From assembly GCF_965641715.1 (NCBI RefSeq), contig NZ_OZ282453.1: DNA of 64,000 nt, one strand, 5' to 3'. A model generated the notes under the pieces. The model saw only the letters and a list, made by a program, of their open reading frames with translations. It was not told the origin of the DNA and did not search any database. Position 1 is the stretch's first letter. Each line of letters opens with the position of its first letter. A program made the translations under genes and the position numbers. Of this stretch, positions 39,186 to 50,364 are shown in pieces. The stretch is from Escherichia coli. Its GTDB lineage: Bacteria; Pseudomonadota; Gammaproteobacteria; Enterobacterales; Enterobacteriaceae.

Positions 39186-40166
39186 ATGAACGCAATAATA
39201 TCGCCTGATTATTACTATGTTCTTACTGTTGCTGGTCAGTCTAATGCCATGGCGTATGGCGAAGGACTGCCATTACCGGACAGGGAAGATGCGCCTCATC
39301 CCAGAATTAAACAATTAGCGAGATTTGCGCATACGCATCCCGGAGGCCCGTCATGTCACTTTAACGACATTATTCCACTGACTCACTGCCCACACGATGT
39401 TCAGGATATGCAGGGTTATCACCATCCTCTGGCAACGAATCATCAAACACAGTACGGCACCGTTGGCCAGGCACTGCATATTGCACGGAAATTACTGCCC
39501 TTCATTCCTGATAATGCAGGGGTTCTCATCGTTCCATGTTGCCGTGGCGGATCGGCTTTTACCGCGGGCAGCGAGGGGACATATTCAGAACGGCACGGAG
39601 CCAGCCATGATGCTTGTCGTTGGGGAACGGATACTCCGCTGTACCAGGATTTAGTCAGCAGAACGCGAGCCGCACTGGCAAAAAATCCGCAGAACAAATT
39701 CCTCGGCGTATGCTGGATGCAAGGCGAATTTGACTTAATGACCAGTGACTACGCGTCACACCCTCAACACTTTAATCATATGGTTGAAGCCTTTCGTAGG
39801 GATCTAAAACAATACCATTCTCAGCTGAATAATATTACTGACGCGCCGTGGTTTTGCGGCGATACCACCTGGTACTGGAAAGAAAATTTCCCTCATGCGT
39901 ATGAAGCTATTTATGGCAATTATCAAAATAATGTTTTAGCTAATATTATTTTCGTCGACTTCCAGCAACAAGGTGCAAGAGGGCTAACGAACGCGCCTGA
40001 TGAAGATCCGGACGATTTAAGCACGGGATATTACGGTTCAGCGTACCGGTCACCGGAGAACTGGACGACGGCACTGCGAAGCAGTCATTTCAGCTCAGCA
40101 GCCCGTCGGGGGATTATTTCTGACAGGTTTGTAGAAGCAATTTTGCAGTTTTGGCGCGAAAGGTGA
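39186..40166 (+). CDS. nanS: 9-O-acetyl-N-acetylneuraminate esterase
   Basis: ORF 39159-40166; start at MNAIISPDYYYVLTVAGQSNAMAYGEG (39186). Confidence 0.9.
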   Translation: MNAIISPDYYYVLTVAGQSNAMAYGEGLPLPDREDAPHPRIKQLARFAHTHPGGPSCHFNDIIPLTHCPHDVQDMQGYHHPLATNHQTQYGTVGQALHIARKLLPFIPDNAGVLIVPCCRGGSAFTAGSEGTYSERHGASHDACRWGTDTPLYQDLVSRTRAALAKNPQNKFLGVCWMQGEFDLMTSDYASHPQHFNHMVEAFRRDLKQYHSQLNNITDAPWFCGDTTWYWKENFPHAYEAIYGNYQNNVLANIIFVDFQQQGARGLTNAPDEDPDDLSTGYYGSAYRSPENWTTALRSSHFSSAARRGIISDRFVEAILQFWRER

Positions 40167-40173
40167 GCGTTCA

Positions 40174-40824
40174 TTAATTTGATTTATTCGCATCCATCAG
40201 CGCTTTTAACTCCTCCGGCGTAAACGGTGGTTTGCGTCGGTGCAACATCGCATGGCAATTAGGGCACACAGGAAGTAAATCATTAACTGGATCCAGCTGG
40301 TAATCCTCTTTAATGGCTGAAAGCGGCACCAGGTGATGCATATGGATAAAACCCTCAGCGATATCGCCATAGATCTTCACCAGATCAACGCCGCATACGT
40401 TGCACTGGCATCCGTGATGTTCGACTGCTTTCTCGCGAGCTTTTTTATCGCGTTCATAGCGGTTTACCGTCACCTTTATCGCCGCACCTTCAACGTAGGT
40501 CCCCTGCGACGGCAACTCATCCGGGAACAGAACATCGGCTATGGGAGCCGCAGCGGCTTTATCCTGATGAATATGAAATCCCTGATCTATAAGTAGCTTG
40601 ACGCATTTAGATTTTATTCCGCCGGTGAAATCCGCAGGGGTAAATTGCGTCCCCGTCATCAATGTCGCTGCGATGCCAGCAATCGCCTTCGAGGGGTAAC
40701 GTCGGCCATGATATTCAATCTCATACAACCGCGCAGGCTGGAACTGATGAGTTTCTCCCGCATCCCATAAATGGATAGCTTCGATGATATACCGCCGCGG
40801 AAGATGGTCGGGAAGTTTATTCAT
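40174..40824 (-). CDS. HNH endonuclease with N-terminal domain of unknown function
   Basis: 216-aa ORF with RBS; C-terminal HNH signature (CQCNVCG ... HMHHLVPLS ... PVCPNCHAMLH); convergent with nanS. Confidence 0.75.
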   Translation of the reverse strand: MNKLPDHLPRRYIIEAIHLWDAGETHQFQPARLYEIEYHGRRYPSKAIAGIAATLMTGTQFTPADFTGGIKSKCVKLLIDQGFHIHQDKAAAAPIADVLFPDELPSQGTYVEGAAIKVTVNRYERDKKAREKAVEHHGCQCNVCGVDLVKIYGDIAEGFIHMHHLVPLSAIKEDYQLDPVNDLLPVCPNCHAMLHRRKPPFTPEELKALMDANKSN

Positions 40825-41517
40825 GGGGAATATCCTTATACGTTCTCAGAACAGGCAGCAAAAAAACAAATGAGATCAAGGTAATATATCTTCACTTGCA
40901 GGCTTGAACAGCAGAAAATTTGCGAGCATGATCGCAATTATTTCACTGCCAGGGATATCAATGGCTTCCAGTAAATCGCTACAGCAGGCAATTGCCAATA
41001 TAAAAATCTGGCACAAGGGTGAACAGCGCACGCCGCATAAGCCATTGTTATTGCTATACGTATTAGCGGGATACCTGAATGGACATCCGCACCTTTTCGA
41101 TTATTGTAGTGGAACAGTCTACGAGGATGCAGTTCGAAGTGAGTAAGTAAAGGTTGCTGGAAACGATCAATGCCGCCATACAATGATATTTGAGGATCAA
41201 CAATGAGTAATAAAAACTACGAAAGTCACCGCAAAGCGATTGTTAGTAAAGGTATACCACCCGCTCTATTAAATAGGCTCACCAATTCGGATGTTCAGGT
41301 GATCAATACCTTCTTAACACGAGTGAGCAAACTGGAACTATCTCAACAAGAGAAAGACTGGATCATAAAAATCATCTCTATGGTTTAGAGAATTTCAGCC
41401 TTGTAGTGGTCAACAAAAACTGGTCACAATTTTAGATTTTTCCAGTATCTATTTTCCGATTCGTTCGGCGGTAATCCACCGATATATTCATGAGGCCGGG
41501 GTACACTACAATATTCA

Positions 41518-41649
<132 letters not shown>

Positions 41650-41841
41650 CTACTTGATCCGATAACACCACAGCACCTACCTGAACTGTCCGCTTGTGTA
41701 ATGGCTCCCCTGGTCGCCCTTTTAAGAGTCAAGACGTTATCGGGATGCTGTTGATTTCGTTGTAATGTATAAACTTCACGTCGCCACACCACACTTGATT
41801 TGGCTCTGTCACGGCGAACTGCCGTTCAGGGAGTCCTGACA

Positions 41842-42027
41842 TCAAGAGCGCGGTAGCTTTTTTCCTTTAGCCTCACGTATTTCGATTTGTTCCGGAATTA
41901 TCAGGGAGGTTTTTGGTGTTTTGCCCTTACGCTCATCACGCTGTTGTTTGCCCCATCTTGTTATCGAGGAAAAGCCGACATCCATAGCTTTGGCGGCATC
42001 TGCCACAGTATTGTTCGGGGTGAACAT
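41842..42027 (-). mobile_element. IS3-family (IS911-like) transposase OrfA remnant
   Basis: 61-aa fragment [33 protein letters not shown]...PEQIEIRE resembles the IS911/IS3 OrfA HTH region; no intact transposase or terminal repeats seen. Confidence 0.7.
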
Positions 42028-42301: not shown

Positions 42302-44533
42302 TTAGTTCTCAACCATCAATCGGGAAAGTTTGGCAAAAATCGAACTCTTACTACTTTCGCCACTCCTGAGCATATCCAGGGTGAAGCTATTGAGGTAAGC
42401 ACCAGTTAACGGGTGGTTAAATACATCTACGGCCTTACCTTGGGCGTCCCATATCAGCAGATTTTCTACCAGGTTAGGCCGTGCAATAGTAGGATTTGTA
42501 GGCTGAGCATCGCTTACCAGAACAAACACTCCATTCACATGCGGTTGCAGGTAAATATGGTGATGCTTCATCTTTTGAGTTTTGGTCAACGAGTCGTATT
42601 TCGAGCGGCCCGGTGATATCAGATAGGGCAGTACGTTTTGCTCCAATTTTGCTGAGCGGGTGATGGTATAGCCGTTAAATTTATCACCTTTACGCTCCGC
42701 CAGCGCTTTTTCTTGTTCCTGATAAGCATATGAATCGACGATATTAAATTGCGCTGGGCCAATCAGGCGCGGCACGCGGGAGCTGTTATAGGTGGTAAGC
42801 AGCACATCTGCTGTGTGGTCGTAGAGATAGAAGCTTTTATCGAATAATTTCTTTAGTCGTCCCAGAGCTGGATGATCAACAGATAGATACTCGAATTCAC
42901 CTTCAGCGATCCCGGTATCAACCACCCTAAGTTGGCCGCGCTCTATTTTTAGTTCAACATATCCAAGCAGGGAGAGATAGCTTTTTGTTTTGCGTACTGA
43001 ATAGGCGGTATAGTGCCCATCCGCCAATTCTGGCAGTGGTATGTTATGTTGATTGAGTAAGCTCTCTTTGAACCATAGTTCAGTTTTTGTTCGGCGTACC
43101 TTACTTTTCAATAAGGTAACTGCTGACTTGAGACGACTGTGTGGTTTCGTCAGTTCGATTTCGTATTGTGCAGGGTTGCTTACCAATTGTTCATTAATAA
43201 AATCAATCGCATCCAGCAACTTACGATCAATATTCATTCCTTGTAAAACCACAGGCACCGGTTGCTGATTTAGCCACCCTTGCAAACGATCTAGCTTAAG
43301 CTGGGTATAGGTATCCCAGTTGAGTTCAGGCTGTTTTCGGGCGTCGTCAAAGGCTGCATAGAAATCATTGTACTCAACAGATTCATTCTCTTGCTGCCGG
43401 ATGCTGTTGCTTCGTTCTTCCTCTACCGCATTGAGTACCAGAATAGATGTATTGGCAGGCAGCTCAGCAAATCCGGTTTGTCGGGAATGCTTAAGCGATG
43501 CAAGAGGCCAGAGTTGATACCCAGGGAACTGGTTGGCTAATGCATCAAAGAAATAAGCTTCTTGCGTGACGCTGAATTCGACGCCGTTATTAACCACCAA
43601 CAGCGTATTAGCCAGCTGTTGATCGAGGTCGGTAGCAAACTGATTGACCTCGTGTGTAGCCTGAAATGGGATAGGTTGATGGGGGATCTCTAGTTCACTG
43701 AGGCGCTCGCTGGCAGCATTCATGACCACGTTATAGGTATAGACCTGGCATTCGCCATAGCCGCTGCGCTCACGAAAAAAATCCAGTTTGCTATCACGGG
43801 CATCAAGTTTGCGCCGAGCTTTAAGCCGACGATTATCGATGTTAAACCACACGCTGGTATCATCCAGGGATAGGTGCATCTCATCCGCCGGTTCGACCAG
43901 GAATTTTCGTTTGTGCAAGGTAAAAGCGAGTTCATTATATTCTGAGGCATAAATGTCGAGCTCAAAGGCTTCCATCACCCCGATGCCTTTTTTTTGTGTG
44001 ACGGGCTGACTCAGACGAGCGTTAAGGTAAAGCGTTGAGTTGAAGTAAGTCGGCGATACCGAAAAGCGCTCACTGGCTTTTTCCAGCATTACCATTTTCA
44101 AATGCAGGCTAAATAATCCCTGAATCAGGCGAGATAGGTCATGATTTTCAGCGGTGAGTTGCTGACAAAGCGTTTCAATACGTTCTGCCAACGTCCTATG
44201 AGCCTGACTGTTCGGGTTAGTTGCAGGCGCCAGGAAAAAAAAGACGTGATGGTAATTTGGTAAGCAATGCAGTTCATATTTTACCTCCTGCCCGGCCTCC
44301 AGCCCAAGCTTCTGCCGCACGCAAGATTTTACCTCCTGATGAATTCGCGCATAGTAATCAGCGGATTTTTCTTTTCGCTCTTTAGTAAAGCGCTGAACCA
44401 TAAAGTCTATCGTATAGATATTAGATACAGGGGCCAATAGACGCTGGATGGTCGTCAGCTGATCTTCTTCAAGCTTGATCAAATTGGTTCGGGCAATCGG
44501 AGCATCCGTCAGTTCATTCAAATTAGGGATCAT
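42302..44533 (-). CDS. 743-aa protein of unknown function, second gene of the helicase operon
   Basis: ATG overlaps the upstream helicase stop (ATGA); RBS AAGGAAAAG; no motif I can assign. Confidence 0.8.
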   Translation of the reverse strand: MIPNLNELTDAPIARTNLIKLEEDQLTTIQRLLAPVSNIYTIDFMVQRFTKERKEKSADYYARIHQEVKSCVRQKLGLEAGQEVKYELHCLPNYHHVFFFLAPATNPNSQAHRTLAERIETLCQQLTAENHDLSRLIQGLFSLHLKMVMLEKASERFSVSPTYFNSTLYLNARLSQPVTQKKGIGVMEAFELDIYASEYNELAFTLHKRKFLVEPADEMHLSLDDTSVWFNIDNRRLKARRKLDARDSKLDFFRERSGYGECQVYTYNVVMNAASERLSELEIPHQPIPFQATHEVNQFATDLDQQLANTLLVVNNGVEFSVTQEAYFFDALANQFPGYQLWPLASLKHSRQTGFAELPANTSILVLNAVEEERSNSIRQQENESVEYNDFYAAFDDARKQPELNWDTYTQLKLDRLQGWLNQQPVPVVLQGMNIDRKLLDAIDFINEQLVSNPAQYEIELTKPHSRLKSAVTLLKSKVRRTKTELWFKESLLNQHNIPLPELADGHYTAYSVRKTKSYLSLLGYVELKIERGQLRVVDTGIAEGEFEYLSVDHPALGRLKKLFDKSFYLYDHTADVLLTTYNSSRVPRLIGPAQFNIVDSYAYQEQEKALAERKGDKFNGYTITRSAKLEQNVLPYLISPGRSKYDSLTKTQKMKHHHIYLQPHVNGVFVLVSDAQPTNPTIARPNLVENLLIWDAQGKAVDVFNHPLTGAYLNSFTLDMLRSGESSKSSIFAKLSRLMVEN

Positions 44534-47500
44534 GAGACTTTTCCTTTAGTCGGCAACTTTTCTACACCCAGCAGGGTTAGTAACATTGGGTTAATGTTCA
44601 ATGTCATGCTCAGTTTCGAATTTTCCAGAGCTCGTCCGCTCTCTCGATTTTTGGGCTGATAGTACTGATAGTCGGTTTGCAACAGGTTAAGGTAGTGGAT
44701 CGTGTGATCCACGTTATCTTGCCACATCAGATTATTGGGGTTCTGGCTGTAGGCGACGTTCAGATAGACAAATCGAATGCGTTCGTAACGGCCTGACAGC
44801 ACAGCCTGAAGCTGTTTCTGTCCCTCTGTATCCGCCTTTTGGCTGGTGATATTACGGATCTGGCGAATCTTGTTGTTGCTTTTCTCAAGCGTTTCTTCTG
44901 CCCGCGTTAAATCATCCAACTGCGTCGCCCAGCGTTTAACGTCGATGCAGAGCAGGTCGTTACCCACTTCAATAAAGCGGTCAAAAAACTCATATACTAG
45001 CGGTTCAAGGCGTTCAAACACCTGTTGATCAGAAAGTGGGGTAACGCCATAGCTTTTTAGCACTTTATCGAAGAGATATTCACCGACATTGCCTTTGAGC
45101 AACGGAACTAGCCTGGGGTTGGGTACCCATTTTTTGAATGCCGTTTCCTGGATGTTGTCACATTCACGAATCAACTCGCCGACCAGGTTGCCGGGGGTAA
45201 AATCGACATCGTTTCTATACTGCGGAAAGAGGGTGAGCTCAGGCCGGTACTCTCTTGCGCCGCCAGCGAAATCCGACAGGGCGGAATAATCTCTGTGGAC
45301 AAGTCCATCCGGGCCGCGTTTGTGGCAAAGTAAAATAGTTTGATTGCCCTGATGGCGGTCGATAAACAGGGCGTGGTGGATTGATTGCATTTGCCGATTG
45401 GCGGCATACAAGGAATTAGCCTGAAGTTTTTCCAGCCAACGCATGGGATTGGTAAAGGAGTCAGAATCGCGGAATAAATTACACAATTCGAGATATTCAA
45501 GGTTGCCGGCGCGTACCTGATTTATCCAGTCGGTTTTCAGGACTCGCTTATGAACAGCATCGATGCGGCGACCATTTTCTACGATAGCCTGTTCAAACGC
45601 ATACCGCTGTTCTGCATCTCTAAATGACTGGTTCTGACTCAGCTTTTCGCACTCCTCCATTAGGCGGTGGTTAAGCAAGGACATGCTTTCTGATACTACC
45701 TCGTTACCGCTATCTTCACTGAGAGCGGCGAACTGGAATGCAACATTACGGAACACATCGCGGGGTAAAAAGATTTCTGTTTTCAATAGAGTGTCGCGAC
45801 GCTCGACTCGCCCTACGGCCTGCACGACGACTTTGAATAAGCTCATATCATGTTCGGCCATTAACAGGCGATAGTTTTCGCCGTGGGCGAAATTAACGTT
45901 GAAATCGGCCAGCTTGTGGACGGTAATATCGTCATCAGCGTAGTGTTTAAGCACGGTAACGTAGTTAGGTAATGTATTAAGATTGCCGCTGTTGTCCTTT
46001 ACTTCGCTGTAAAACGAGGAGTTGATGAGCACTAAGCGCTCAAAATCGACATCCAGACGTGGTGCATTGATATCATTAATATCGCCGTCATGGTATTTCA
46101 CAAAGTAGTTGAGGCCAGTGCCTGCACTTTTGTAGCTGCTCATAAATACCAGTACGGTATTGCTGTTCTTGAGATAGGTTTCTTGCCTAATATCTTCGAC
46201 ATTAGCCAGTGGTGAATCGAAAAAGACCAAATGGACTGTGTGACGCCCTTTGAATGGGGTAAAGGTCAGGATCTGGTCATGTTTCTTATCGTTATCCGTT
46301 TTATCATCGCACCGGGAGTGCATACCGTACTGCTGACGCCAGGCTGATTGATGAGTGCGCCAGGCGCTGATAAAGGCCCGCTTAAATGTCCCTGAAAGGG
46401 ACAAAATCAGGCTGTTTTTACCCTCGTAGGCGGCAAGCAATAACGCTTCAAGCTCCCGCTGGTACTGACGCCGTTTATAGGTATTTTTCAGGTCGTACTC
46501 CAGCGGTTTCTTCAGCGCGTCGAAAAAGTTGTCATACGTCCTGCGATAGATCTCACAATTTTGGTAGATATCGGTCAATTTTAACTGCTTATCATCGAAC
46601 ACCCTGAAGTCGACGTTGCGGATACTGGCTCTCAACGCGCGTAGTGCTCTAAGCGTATCGATATCTGTTTTTTTACGTTCAATGACTCGATAGCCAAGGT
46701 CACGGCTATAGCGCTCCAGGAAGTGACGATTGAAGTTACCGTTTTTGGTGTGGCTAAAACCACTGGTGGCGCTAAATCCAATCACTTTATTGTGCGTGCC
46801 CGTTAATAAACGTAGCAGCATGGCTTCAGGCAACTCTTGTACCAGATCCATCTCAAACGCCAGAATAATTGTACGCTCGGCTCCACTGTTCACGTAATTG
46901 AGTTCAACTATCGGCGTCATCGTGAATACGGTTTTGGGTTGCAGATAAGTGTAGAAATGATCAATCAACAAGTTTTTATCGGTGGTGCGATCGAAGATAT
47001 GTCGCACCACTCCAGCTACATTATTGGCTGCGTCAACAAATTGGCCCAAAGGTGTATTCTGGCTGCTGGAGTTATCCTGGCCACCATTTTTTACCCAGCG
47101 CTTAAAGTGTCGGTTGGTGATATCAGAACAGGCGGCGAGGATGACGGAGACCAATTGGAACAGATCGTGCAGTGTGGGATTGGTGTCGCTGGCATCATTT
47201 TCGACTTCGTAATATAGCTCGGTGCGCGTTATGTCGCCTTCGCTGTTGCGCATACGAATGCGTTTCAGCCCCTCTTCATTAACGTACATTTTGGGGTTAA
47301 AACTGAACACATTCCGGGTAATGGAAATGATGCGTTCGGCGGCGTCGCCGTTAACTTCGAATGCTCCTAACTGGTCGCGAAACATCTCCAGGATCGAGCC
47401 CAGCGTCGTACCGGGTGATAATTCGCACTTTTTCGCCAGTAGGTCTCGAAGGATGGTGATGAATTTGACCATCTCTTGCTCAAAGGTCGTTTGCGCTTCT

Positions 47501-49239
47501 TTGGGCTTTTTCCGGCGCTCCAGGCTGAGTACCGCATTGTGAATACGTCCCGCGACAGAGATAACATGCGCCAGATTATTTTCCTGTGTGATTAGCTTTA
47601 CATGGCATGTTTCTTCAAGACGGGTGTAGGCTTCATGTAGTTCATCAATGATTACCGTAAAGCGAATATTTTTCTGGCGAAAAGGGCAGTCTGGATTACG
47701 TCTGAAGTGTTCATCACGAAGATAAGCAACCTGCCCGGAATGGCCAGCTGCCGCAACGGTGCTGATCTGTGGATCTTTGGGAGCCAGCTTGCCACCAATC
47801 AGCAAGTCGAAACCTACGGACTCAAAATGCACGCCTTCACCTCGCTGACGAGGCGCCAGTCGGTAAGTTGATGTGTCGAACTTATTTGTAGTCATTAATA
47901 GCACCGACGGGCGGTACTGGCAAACTTCGAAAGGCAATACCTGTTTGATAAGCTCGAAGTAGACTTCGTGTACGCTTAGTTCAGACTTGCTTGGTTTTCG
48001 TGCTGTCTCCGCGTGTTGCATTCGCTCTTGGCGCGCCTGGAGCCCGCGACGAATGTACTCTTTAATGGAAGCTTTTTCACTATCTGGTCCAAATAGTAAT
48101 TTACAGGCTGACTCAATCGTATTGCGGATACTATGACGACAGTTTTTTAGCTGCTCTTCAAGAATTTCTCTTTCGTAGTTGTTATCCTGAGAACCGTATG
48201 TTGTCAGCTTTTTTAACTGCTCTTCACAGCGATCAATTTGTGAGACATGGTAATTGAGCGAACGCATTGCGCTGCCAATATATTTGCTACCTTTCGCCCC
48301 TTCGTACCACTGAATATAGCGGTCGCGATTTTTCAGGCCCGTGGCCCAGTCCATAAAGTCGAGATCGGCAATATCCTTACGAGAGAGAACGCAAATGAAT
48401 TCGCCGCCAGAAGCCAGAATTTTATCTTTCTGGCTGCTATCCAGGTCGATTTGTGATTTTTGCGGCGACATGAACAGCAGGTTGGTAAAGCCACCTTCGG
48501 GAAACAGATCATCTGACTTTTGTTTTTTGGCGAAACACTCCAGATATTCGACATACCCTTGAATTACGCCATAACTTTTGCCAAACCCCGTGCCATCGGA
48601 ACTGAAGATGACCTCCGCGCCATCACGTTCATGCACGTGGTAAAGTTGAGAAACTTGGGCGCGGCAAGCGTTAATATCTTCAACCAGCGTTATGTCAGGA
48701 ATTTGCCTGGAGATGAGATCTTGCAGATTATTATTGATAGTTATCTCTCCCACACGCTCACACTCACGGTAACTATTGATGGTTATTTGGCTGCTTTCGA
48801 GCAGAATCTTTTCCACTTGCATGGGAGCAAGATGCAAGGCTGTTGCAATTTCATTGATAGTATCTGATAGAGGTTCGTGTGGATTGCTAATCGTGAAGTG
48901 GTTTAGTACTGCTGCAACGGTATCTGGATGCAATGCTTTTCTGAGAGTGGGGAAGGTGAGGCTGTAATCGTATAGCGCCAAATCATTGTTTATCAGACAG
49001 CGAAACAGCTGTTTAGTGGGATCGCCTCCAGGACGGCTGGCAAATCCCAGGATTTTTGCCTGTTCGAGTCGATACAACAATGCTGCAGCATCGCGATCAG
49101 GTGAGTCAAATGCATCGTGAAGCTGCTGGCTAAATGGCATTGTGGCATTCAGCCGGTTATGGCTGACCAACGCGGAAAAGTGCTGACGTACCAAGGTAAG
49201 CAGCTTACAATCTTCCTTTATAGTCCAGTTTTTTCTCAT
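44530..49239 (-). CDS. large divergent SF2 (DExH) helicase/translocase-like protein, possible C-terminal Mrr-like nuclease fold
   Basis: ORF 44530-49275, probable start at second Met (49239) behind AGGGGA; motif I SDGTGFGKS (nt about 48574-48600), motif II VIIDELHE (about 47635-47655), Snf2-like motif V SSYKSAGTGLNY, motif VI QAVGRVERR (about 45796-45822); C-terminal GEYLFDKVL...DLLCIDVKRW. Confidence 0.8.
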   Translation of the reverse strand: MRKNWTIKEDCKLLTLVRQHFSALVSHNRLNATMPFSQQLHDAFDSPDRDAAALLYRLEQAKILGFASRPGGDPTKQLFRCLINNDLALYDYSLTFPTLRKALHPDTVAAVLNHFTISNPHEPLSDTINEIATALHLAPMQVEKILLESSQITINSYRECERVGEITINNNLQDLISRQIPDITLVEDINACRAQVSQLYHVHERDGAEVIFSSDGTGFGKSYGVIQGYVEYLECFAKKQKSDDLFPEGGFTNLLFMSPQKSQIDLDSSQKDKILASGGEFICVLSRKDIADLDFMDWATGLKNRDRYIQWYEGAKGSKYIGSAMRSLNYHVSQIDRCEEQLKKLTTYGSQDNNYEREILEEQLKNCRHSIRNTIESACKLLFGPDSEKASIKEYIRRGLQARQERMQHAETARKPSKSELSVHEVYFELIKQVLPFEVCQYRPSVLLMTTNKFDTSTYRLAPRQRGEGVHFESVGFDLLIGGKLAPKDPQISTVAAAGHSGQVAYLRDEHFRRNPDCPFRQKNIRFTVIIDELHEAYTRLEETCHVKLITQENNLAHVISVAGRIHNAVLSLERRKKPKEAQTTFEQEMVKFITILRDLLAKKCELSPGTTLGSILEMFRDQLGAFEVNGDAAERIISITRNVFSFNPKMYVNEEGLKRIRMRNSEGDITRTELYYEVENDASDTNPTLHDLFQLVSVILAACSDITNRHFKRWVKNGGQDNSSSQNTPLGQFVDAANNVAGVVRHIFDRTTDKNLLIDHFYTYLQPKTVFTMTPIVELNYVNSGAERTIILAFEMDLVQELPEAMLLRLLTGTHNKVIGFSATSGFSHTKNGNFNRHFLERYSRDLGYRVIERKKTDIDTLRALRALRASIRNVDFRVFDDKQLKLTDIYQNCEIYRRTYDNFFDALKKPLEYDLKNTYKRRQYQRELEALLLAAYEGKNSLILSLSGTFKRAFISAWRTHQSAWRQQYGMHSRCDDKTDNDKKHDQILTFTPFKGRHTVHLVFFDSPLANVEDIRQETYLKNSNTVLVFMSSYKSAGTGLNYFVKYHDGDINDINAPRLDVDFERLVLINSSFYSEVKDNSGNLNTLPNYVTVLKHYADDDITVHKLADFNVNFAHGENYRLLMAEHDMSLFKVVVQAVGRVERRDTLLKTEIFLPRDVFRNVAFQFAALSEDSGNEVVSESMSLLNHRLMEECEKLSQNQSFRDAEQRYAFEQAIVENGRRIDAVHKRVLKTDWINQVRAGNLEYLELCNLFRDSDSFTNPMRWLEKLQANSLYAANRQMQSIHHALFIDRHQGNQTILLCHKRGPDGLVHRDYSALSDFAGGAREYRPELTLFPQYRNDVDFTPGNLVGELIRECDNIQETAFKKWVPNPRLVPLLKGNVGEYLFDKVLKSYGVTPLSDQQVFERLEPLVYEFFDRFIEVGNDLLCIDVKRWATQLDDLTRAEETLEKSNNKIRQIRNITSQKADTEGQKQLQAVLSGRYERIRFVYLNVAYSQNPNNLMWQDNVDHTIHYLNLLQTDYQYYQPKNRESGRALENSKLSMTLNINPMLLTLLGVEKLPTKGKVS

Positions 49240-50364
49240 TCTTCTTCCCCTTAATATAAATGCACCTGCAACCACTCAGCCAAACGCTCAACGTCAAAAC
49301 CCGTAATCCATACTCCCACGCCAAAAACGTCTTCGATAAATATTCATCATATTTTCGAGGCACTTTTCAGAGATGCTCTTGGCAAGACGGGACTCAGGGG
49401 GTAAACCTTCCTGTAGTAAATTGCTTAGCGTCTGCTTAACTTTCCCGAGCGTATTTTTTCAACTACGGCAGCAAATGAGACGGTCTTAAAACCGTGCAGG
49501 ATAGGCCATATCTACAACGTGTTTACTACTTGAGCACACATTGTGATATGGCAGTCACCTTTCCGACAAATGGTGAACCGTCCCTGACGAACAACAACAT
49601 TAACGCATATCTCTTCATCGCCTGATCAAAGTAGCTGCCAACTATTATTCGCCTCAACAATGAGTTTTTTTACTAACGATTTCTACTACCTTCCCAAAGC
49701 GACCACAACAATCAAAAATATTGTTTACACATCAGTCTCATATCACCGGAGTAAGTTGACTATTGATAAACCATTTCAAGATATTAATAGCTGATCATAC
49801 TTCCCCAAAGTGCTTATTTATAGCGAAGGCAAATAGCATAAACTGAAGGGCGAATTGTTAAATCATACCGTGAATGAGCTGAAGAACAAGCATAAAAATT
49901 ATATCATTTACATGACTTATGTGTTTTAGTTAAATGATAAATAGGCAGTATAAAATCCAATTCAACAGCCGAGTTCAAGCGATTAATTTTTTGATGAGCT
50001 TATCAAGCACGAGCAGCGATACCAGCAAATCCACTTGGTTGCTTGAAGAATATGACTCCTTCAACACATAGCAGATTATCTCCGCCGTTGGTAGAGAACC
50101 GTTCACCGTTGTTAGTCAACAGTTATAAATTTATATTAATGATTAGAAGAATCTATCTCGGGGTAGATCATCAACATTACTTATTCTAAACCACGTTACA
50201 CATGATCTCCGGGGCAGCGAAGTCATCAAAAAAGAGTATTATAAAACTCCGCCCTTAAGGAGAAAGGTTTCCTGGCGGTTGTAATGCCGTTGACGATACA
50301 GCGCACAACACGGATATAAACAACCATTTGATTGATTAATATCTGAAGGGCTGTTTATATTTAA

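Follow-up and report, generated by a model that had tools for sequence, protein, structure and literature searches.

ScoMcrA of Streptomyces coelicolor (Sco4631; PDB 5ZMM) is a Type IV restriction enzyme in which an N-terminal head domain is followed by an SBD domain (specificity for phosphorothioate), an SRA domain (specificity for 5mC/5hmC, that is, 5-methylcytosine and 5-hydroxymethylcytosine) and an HNH nuclease. Residues 91-260 of this protein suffice for phosphorothioate binding (PMC6224610). EcoKMcrA, encoded in the e14 prophage (PDB 6GHC), follows the NEco-HNH plan, likewise with an N-terminal specificity domain and a C-terminal HNH module, and the winged helix (wH)-HNH enzymes (224-283 amino acids, aa) also join a small N-terminal DNA-sensing domain to HNH. 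EcoWI is a stand-alone dimer that cuts and restricts GpsAAC phosphorothioate DNA and works alone when cloned (PMC7461809). Here we analyze a 64,000-nucleotide (nt) stretch of an Escherichia coli chromosome (contig NZ_OZ282453.1 of assembly GCF_965641715.1), hereafter the window, which encodes a 216-aa protein that consists of a ScoMcrA-like head and HNH only, without the SBD and SRA specificity domains of ScoMcrA. We propose, with a probability of about 0.5, that this protein is a stand-alone, single-chain modification-dependent (Type IV-like) restriction endonuclease, with the head as the reader.

The gene is an intact open reading frame (ORF). Its product comprises a head (aa 1-88) and, behind a variable linker, an HNH module from E112-G113 onward, with the boundaries placed by the matches to the head and HNH domains described below:

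40174-40824, minus strand: HNH gene, 216 aa, intact ORF, named 'HNH endonuclease' by RefSeq in near-identical strains
40561-40824, minus strand: head domain, codons 1-88, ScoMcrA-like
40492-40560, minus strand: linker, codons 89-111, variable, with low predicted order
40174-40491, minus strand: HNH module, codons 112-216 and the stop codon, McrA-type beta-beta-alpha-metal

According to the original prediction, made from the sequence alone, the N-terminal ~130 aa resembled nothing recognizable and were to be searched for readers of modified bases, such as SRA, YTH or EVE-like domains. This region instead comprises a head of ~88 aa that matches PF26345 (ScoMcrA_N), not SRA, YTH or EVE, and a linker of ~23 aa. 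In a phmmer search, residues 24-87 of the 216-aa protein align with residues 29-93 of ScoMcrA (PDB 5ZMM), and a profile built from 27 head sequences retrieves residues 4-92 of 5ZMM from the PDB with an E value of 1.8e-8, the sole other match having an E value of 0.54. The same domain (PF26345.1) was already annotated on the 95%-identical cluster representative, and 2,637 homologues carry PF26345 together with PF01844. By homology, the head of the 216-aa protein corresponds to residues ~1-95 of the ScoMcrA head, and it also shares the fold of that domain. The AlphaFold model of the head alone (pLDDT 90, pTM 0.82) has the order alpha-beta-beta-alpha-alpha-beta and shows a weak likeness to helix-turn-helix (HTH) and winged-helix domains, without being a canonical winged helix. 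The motifs H26-x-F28, Y34, Y43-P-x-K46-A47 and G68-G69-x-K-S-K-C74 are conserved in the head; from the sequence, K46 at a helix N-terminus, the G68-G69-x-K-S-K loop, H26, F28, Y34 and F66 could be the contacts to DNA. The NEco domain of EcoKMcrA is unrelated to the head, no match extending beyond the HNH module. In the literature on ScoMcrA-type head domains, we found nothing later than the 2018 ScoMcrA paper, and the publications on RAMA-HNH fusions contain nothing bearing on the head.

The C-terminal HNH nuclease that had been recognized in the sequence is borne out by a Pfam match, a profile match to EcoKMcrA and the invariant cysteines and histidines. PF01844 matches aa 141-197 (E 4e-4), and positions 99-193 of the family profile align with the HNH domain of EcoKMcrA (McrA 176-269; E 4.5e-6). 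In an alignment of 48 homologues, C141, C144, C187, C190, H161, H163, H164, N189, H191 and H195 are invariant; the HNH motif is present, with C141/C144/C187/C190 as the zinc-finger ligands. The best Foldseek matches of the module are EcoKMcrA, ScoMcrA, Cap5 and TagI, EcoKMcrA being the closest module with a solved structure. The onset of the module is marked by the invariant E112-G113 (motif EG...VNRYERD..AR). The linker in front of it varies in length and sequence in the alignment, and pLDDT falls below 50 at residues 92-106 and 111-124. The invariant residues E112-G113...N121-R122-x-E124-R125 lie in the segment with pLDDT <50 (40453-40551, minus strand, codons 92-124). This combination suggests, as far as the model goes, that the EG...NRYER segment may become ordered only upon dimerization or DNA binding.

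The predicted fusion of an HNH nuclease to a separate N-terminal domain is thus confirmed as a two-domain architecture. It is also the architecture of Type IV enzymes, with a nuclease, a separate N-terminal domain and no adjacent cognate methyltransferase; no methyltransferase was found among the neighboring ORFs or annotations of the locus. The PADLOC models for Type IV enzymes (mREase_IV) match both halves of the 216-aa protein weakly (~E 1e-5).

When 1.84 billion representative proteins were searched with a head profile, 2,906 clusters (50% identity) contained the domain, 999 of them at E <=1e-10. In the best-scoring 150 of the 2,906 clusters, head proteins range from 93 to 1,013 aa, with the head in an N-terminal or internal position. 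Partner domains were counted in those head proteins from these 150 clusters that reach 250 aa (90 proteins): HNH in 37, HNH_2 in 20, EVE in 13, NOV_C/DUF3883 in 9, McrB-type AAA_5 in 6, nSTAND3 in 5, DUF3427 in 4, SRA in 3, DUF7669 in 3, MrcB_N in 2 and AspBHI_N in 1. The company of the head in AFDB50 is alike, including McrB-like and DUF3578 proteins, and also a ZorC-like protein. The head domain is nearly always accompanied by parts of Type IV restriction systems. A hidden Markov model of the SBD, built from four enterobacterial EcoWI-like proteins and too narrow for ScoMcrA-type SBDs, matched none of 149 head proteins. The HNH module (residues ~95-215, ~45-58% identical) occurs behind other N-terminal domains in 75 other species; these include DUF3427, Mrr_N, DUF7669 and a weak EVE match, and most often have no Pfam match. 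Among the relatives, EVE-head-HNH proteins mirror the PUA-wH-HNH layout, and Mrr_N(wH)-HNH proteins with the same HNH module replace or accompany head-HNH in Enterobacter and Klebsiella aerogenes. Such a layout of swappable reader and nuclease is the design of Type IV enzymes.

The order of genes in the window, taken from the ORF list and the RefSeq annotation of the near-identical strain A30, is fimE and fimB, then nanC, nanM and nanS, then the HNH locus. The locus is at the nanS-proximal end of the hypervariable lptG-uxuR region, which is anchored by tRNA-leuX and is ranked in a review as the most occupied defense hotspot of E. coli (PMC12707154). The restriction or defense setting that had been proposed for the gene is upheld by this chromosomal position, between nanS and restriction genes. 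All three ORFs that the original prediction placed here are present, namely 40174-40824 (minus strand, 216 aa), 40904-41146 (plus strand, 80 aa, TTG start) and 41203-41388 (plus strand, 61 aa), as is the insertion sequence (IS) remnant beyond the small ORFs. The features around the HNH gene are as follows:

40085-40174, minus strand: ythB-like ORF of 29 codons, found in the sequence and annotated in the E. coli locus L001
40825-40960, no strand: divergent intergenic region of 136 bp between the HNH gene and the EcoWI-like start
40961-41104, plus strand: 48-codon 5' remnant of an EcoWI-like gene (pseudogene), inside ORF 40904-41146
41105-41406, plus strand: replacement sequence with the 61-aa orphan ORF 41203-41388, in place of the remainder of the EcoWI-like gene
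~41424-42026, minus strand: remnants of an IS3-family transposase, an integrase-core pseudogene and an OrfA fragment (annotation of L001 mapped with an offset of +31099, and IS3 matches)
42302-49275, minus strand: two-gene operon for 743-aa and 1581-aa proteins, annotated as hypothetical

The two small ORFs had been regarded as possible gene fragments or small partners of the nuclease. The first of these is indeed a fragment. Its true start is the ATG at 40961, and only the stretch 40961-41104 is homologous to other genes; it matches positions 2-45 of the 284 positions of NCBIfam NF045808 ('phosphorothioated DNA-binding restriction endonuclease', SBD-HNH) with 55.7 bits, the curated cut-off being 180 bits, and lacks the full-length SBD and HNH_2 domains. 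The intact 290-aa EcoWI-like gene of E. coli 3702594 (L003) scores 435.7 bits; the homology of the window to it ends at 41104, and RefSeq marks the remnant as partial. Because of the partial match and this abrupt end of homology, we consider ORF 40904-41146 a pseudogene fragment rather than a functional member of the family. The EcoWI/NF045808 enzymes, encoded divergently next to the HNH gene in intact cassettes, combine a reader SBD (PF26340) with the HNH_2 subtype, unlike the 216-aa protein, which is not a member of this family.

The second small ORF, for which a partner role had been considered, is an orphan with no demonstrable partner role. The 61-aa product matches phrog_25874 across its full length, with no match in 50,697 phage records. 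It has 258 homologues; all 120 of those listed are at least 97% identical to it, all the named ones come from E. coli, and there are no divergent homologues among the matches listed. A phage or partner gene, considered as an identity for this ORF, was not upheld by this pattern of near-identical E. coli copies without a phage match.

On the other side of the HNH gene, the ATG of the ythB-like ORF overlaps the HNH stop codon (TAATG), and the ORF is antisense to the 3' end of nanS. YthB is annotated in K-12 although this strain lacks the HNH gene, and the ORF is absent downstream of the HNH homologues in other genera, occurring only at the E. coli locus. A conserved small partner or immunity gene was considered and rejected, nothing being conserved downstream in nine other loci; nor was a conserved small partner gene found across genera. 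In the 136-bp divergent region, a consensus scan for a shared promoter gave no site within the interval and nothing above chance, with one site in total in 39950-41450 versus 2.9 expected. Divergent spacing is similar elsewhere, 131 bp in Citrobacter and 179 bp in Klebsiella.

The HNH allele, covered over at least 80% of its length, is present in 1,246 of 5,426 complete E. coli genomes, or roughly a quarter, and the EcoWI-like gene is present at intact length in 1,914. The two genes are contiguous in 326 genomes. The arrangement of the window, with an intact HNH gene, a truncated EcoWI-like gene and the orphan ORF, recurs in 879, and the truncation junction of the EcoWI-like gene is common to 879-930 genomes. 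Only a 3' stub of ~106 nt of the HNH gene remains in ~1,900 genomes. Among four E. coli HNH alleles, from strains with and without an intact partner, dN/dS is 0.07-0.14 at pS up to 0.16, and the window copy retains 32 of the 32 family-invariant residues. Judging by these comparisons of sequences, the HNH gene is under purifying selection.

K-12 lacks both the HNH and the EcoWI-like genes (DH5alpha; L104, 2820-3216). In the one genome of the stub class that was checked, FHI_NMBU_03 (L103, 1501-4077), the HNH stub lies beside an intact EcoWI-like gene and a McrB-family gene, in which no head domain was found. The decay of the cassette across E. coli is reciprocal, the EcoWI-like gene being kept next to an HNH stub in some genomes and the HNH gene next to a truncated EcoWI-like gene in others. 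E. coli 3702594 (L003, 1770-5243), a strain with both cassette genes intact, has a Type II Zorya system (zorA2, zorB2, zorE) directly upstream of them; the Zorya insertion truncates nanM and removes nanS.

It had also been suggested that the HNH gene may act either alone or with an adjacent 'helicase operon'; a functional link to the operon finds no support. The 743/1581-aa operon belongs to the cargo of a CP4-like island (CbtA/YeeU, RadC, DUF932), at whose end it lies, and the IS3 remnant stands between it and the HNH locus. The distributions also differ: the operon is present in 142 of the 5,426 genomes versus 1,246 for the HNH gene, and the junction between the two is common to only 6 genomes. 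Neither large protein contains a Pfam helicase domain, although the motifs can be read in the translation of the 1581-aa protein, which has Walker A (GTGFGKS), DELH and SAT motifs. Neither has a match in PADLOC, NCBIfam, PHROG or Pfam. Given its location in a defense hotspot, the operon could be an uncharacterized defense system.

Outside E. coli, the divergent head-HNH/SBD-HNH pair is found in two Citrobacter species and in Klebsiella sp. R445, where it adjoins Wadjet. In Enterobacter sp. MGH24, the EcoWI-like gene is followed by an Mrr_N-like wH-HNH gene with the same HNH module as the 216-aa protein. Homologues without an SBD-HNH neighbor are present in Pantoea, Enterobacter sp. C2, Escherichia sp. 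ESNIH1, P. vulneris (Pseudescherichia) and Shewanella, the latter adjoining GmrSD_N and a STAND NTPase. An integrative element carries a 58%-identical E. coli allele as cargo. The settings of the homologues are, altogether, variable and rich in defense genes, including the nanS end of the leuX hotspot, Zorya II, Wadjet, hsdR, GmrSD_N/STAND and SymE. The pairing with SBD-HNH does not extend beyond the closest clade (at least 64% identity) and therefore looks like linkage by descent in restriction islands, not an obligate partnership.

Several of these loci show further features. In K. aerogenes (L098/L099, 2260-4636), Mrr_N-HNH, SBD-HNH_2 and ScoMcrA_N-HNH genes are direct neighbors and adjoin a Type I hsdR gene, a trio that looks like an array of modification-dependent nucleases. 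In Citrobacter freundii (L013-L015, 5001-10651), a head-HNH gene whose catalytic residues are intact precedes a gene for a 675-aa protein without a Pfam match, and the two are located directly beside a dnd cluster (DndA-like, dnd_assoc_4, DndD-like). A PADLOC search of the neighbors of distant homologues (the 675-aa protein of C. freundii and a 270-aa protein of Shewanella) gave no matches.

Under the proposed mechanism, the head would be the DNA-targeting (reader) module, tethered by the flexible linker of ~23 residues to the McrA-type zinc-finger HNH, which would nick or cut DNA at a short, variable distance from the site bound by the head. The HNH would probably be dimeric and use a divalent metal, as in EcoKMcrA, ScoMcrA and EcoWI. 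The protein would target some feature that foreign DNA carries and the Dam/Dcm-methylated E. coli chromosome lacks; G6mATC and C5mCWGG can presumably be excluded because the enzyme has to be compatible with its host. The dnd cluster beside the apparently intact C. freundii allele is evidence against phosphorothioate as the general target. The HNH gene would act independently of its neighbors, the EcoWI-like gene, which is destroyed in this strain, encoding a separate phosphorothioate-dependent enzyme that was co-inherited in a two-gene cassette. We consider the Type IV reading reasonable, if unproven; the domain identities, the intactness of the gene, its purifying selection, its distribution and its gene contexts are what the analysis shows, and modification dependence, DNA binding by the head, dimerization and metal use are what we infer. 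More tentatively, and with the odds rather against it, the head itself might be a previously unrecognized modification reader, so that the enterobacterial cassettes of head-HNH, SBD-HNH and, in some cases, Mrr_N-HNH would form an array of single-chain nucleases, each directed at a different foreign mark.

The most serious alternative, although a doubtful one, is that the head is a generic DNA-binding, dimerization or regulatory module, and the nuclease is non-specific or triggered in another way, for example, by an infection signal. Because the head is often found in one chain with proven readers (SBD and SRA in ScoMcrA, and EVE, DUF3427 or MrcB_N elsewhere), it may be an accessory clamp or regulator. 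Its co-occurrence with nSTAND3 (5 of the 90 head proteins) and in a ZorC-like protein, the dispensability of the ScoMcrA head for phosphorothioate binding and the weak likeness of the fold to HTH and winged-helix domains point in the same direction. Several other observations weigh against a reader-guided Type IV enzyme: by sequence count, the head is not strongly basic (10 Lys/Arg versus 8 Asp/Glu); the invariant EG...NRYER motif is modeled at low confidence; the literature gives no experiment on any head-HNH protein; and the gene is dispensable, since most E. coli genomes have lost it and invariant residues are replaced in some of the alleles (R122C in L001, C187Y in L002). Yet, the head is the sole non-catalytic domain of the 216-aa protein, and an unregulated HNH with a generic clamp would be expected to be toxic, whereas the gene is maintained by selection in 1,246 genomes. 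Moreover, no partner or immunity gene is conserved across genera, and the relatives have reader-type Mrr_N, DUF3427 or EVE domains in the position of the head.

The same substitutions at invariant positions could signify that the HNH gene no longer functions and is the decaying relic of an old restriction cassette, as could the pseudogenization of the adjoining EcoWI-like gene in the window, the loss of both genes from K-12 and the reduction to a stub in ~1,900 genomes. This appears unlikely given the full-length frame with every family-invariant residue, the low dN/dS and the wide distribution and good conservation of the family across Gammaproteobacteria. Still less probable is a single system with head-HNH and the EcoWI-like SBD-HNH as its two subunits, acting on phosphorothioate DNA as a heteromer or as cooperating nucleases, the window copy then being orphaned and non-functional. 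The divergent pair is found in E. coli, two Citrobacter species, Klebsiella sp. R445 and K. aerogenes, the head and SBD are fused in ScoMcrA, and head-HNH adjoins the dnd genes of C. freundii; however, the EcoWI dimer cuts and restricts phosphorothioate DNA alone (PMC7461809), 879 genomes keep an intact HNH gene under selection with the partner truncated while the converse also exists, the pair does not occur in Pantoea, Enterobacter sp. C2, Pseudescherichia, ESNIH1 and Shewanella, beyond the closest clade, and an apparently intact head-HNH coexists with the dnd cluster in C. freundii. By far the least probable reading is an HNH for homing or phage packaging, the context that the original prediction had named as counting against restriction. 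PHROG HNH families do align with the C-terminal 75-90 residues of the 216-aa protein, but among the 50,697 phage records none has the head domain and 8 show weak matches to HNH only, and there is no terminase, intron or intein nearby in a chromosomal context that is conserved beside nanS and restriction genes. We therefore retain the stand-alone Type IV-like nuclease with the head as reader as the best explanation.

The HNH gene is already annotated as an HNH endonuclease and is common in E. coli, so that the remaining interest is in the function of the head domain. This domain has been catalogued, with no assigned function since the 2018 structure of ScoMcrA, and is revealed here as a common module present in ~2,900 clusters. 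If the head is not a reader, the gene is an ordinary annotated HNH endonuclease beside a pseudogene. With a head and HNH only, the E. coli gene represents the simplest form found in nature and, accordingly, would be a minimal model for finding the ligand of the head; since roughly one in four complete E. coli genomes carries the gene, the ligand can be tested directly in a tractable host. Should the head read a specific mark, this would explain a widespread defense gene and add a new Type IV specificity, and it could provide a new enzyme for mapping that mark, as EcoWI did for phosphorothioates.

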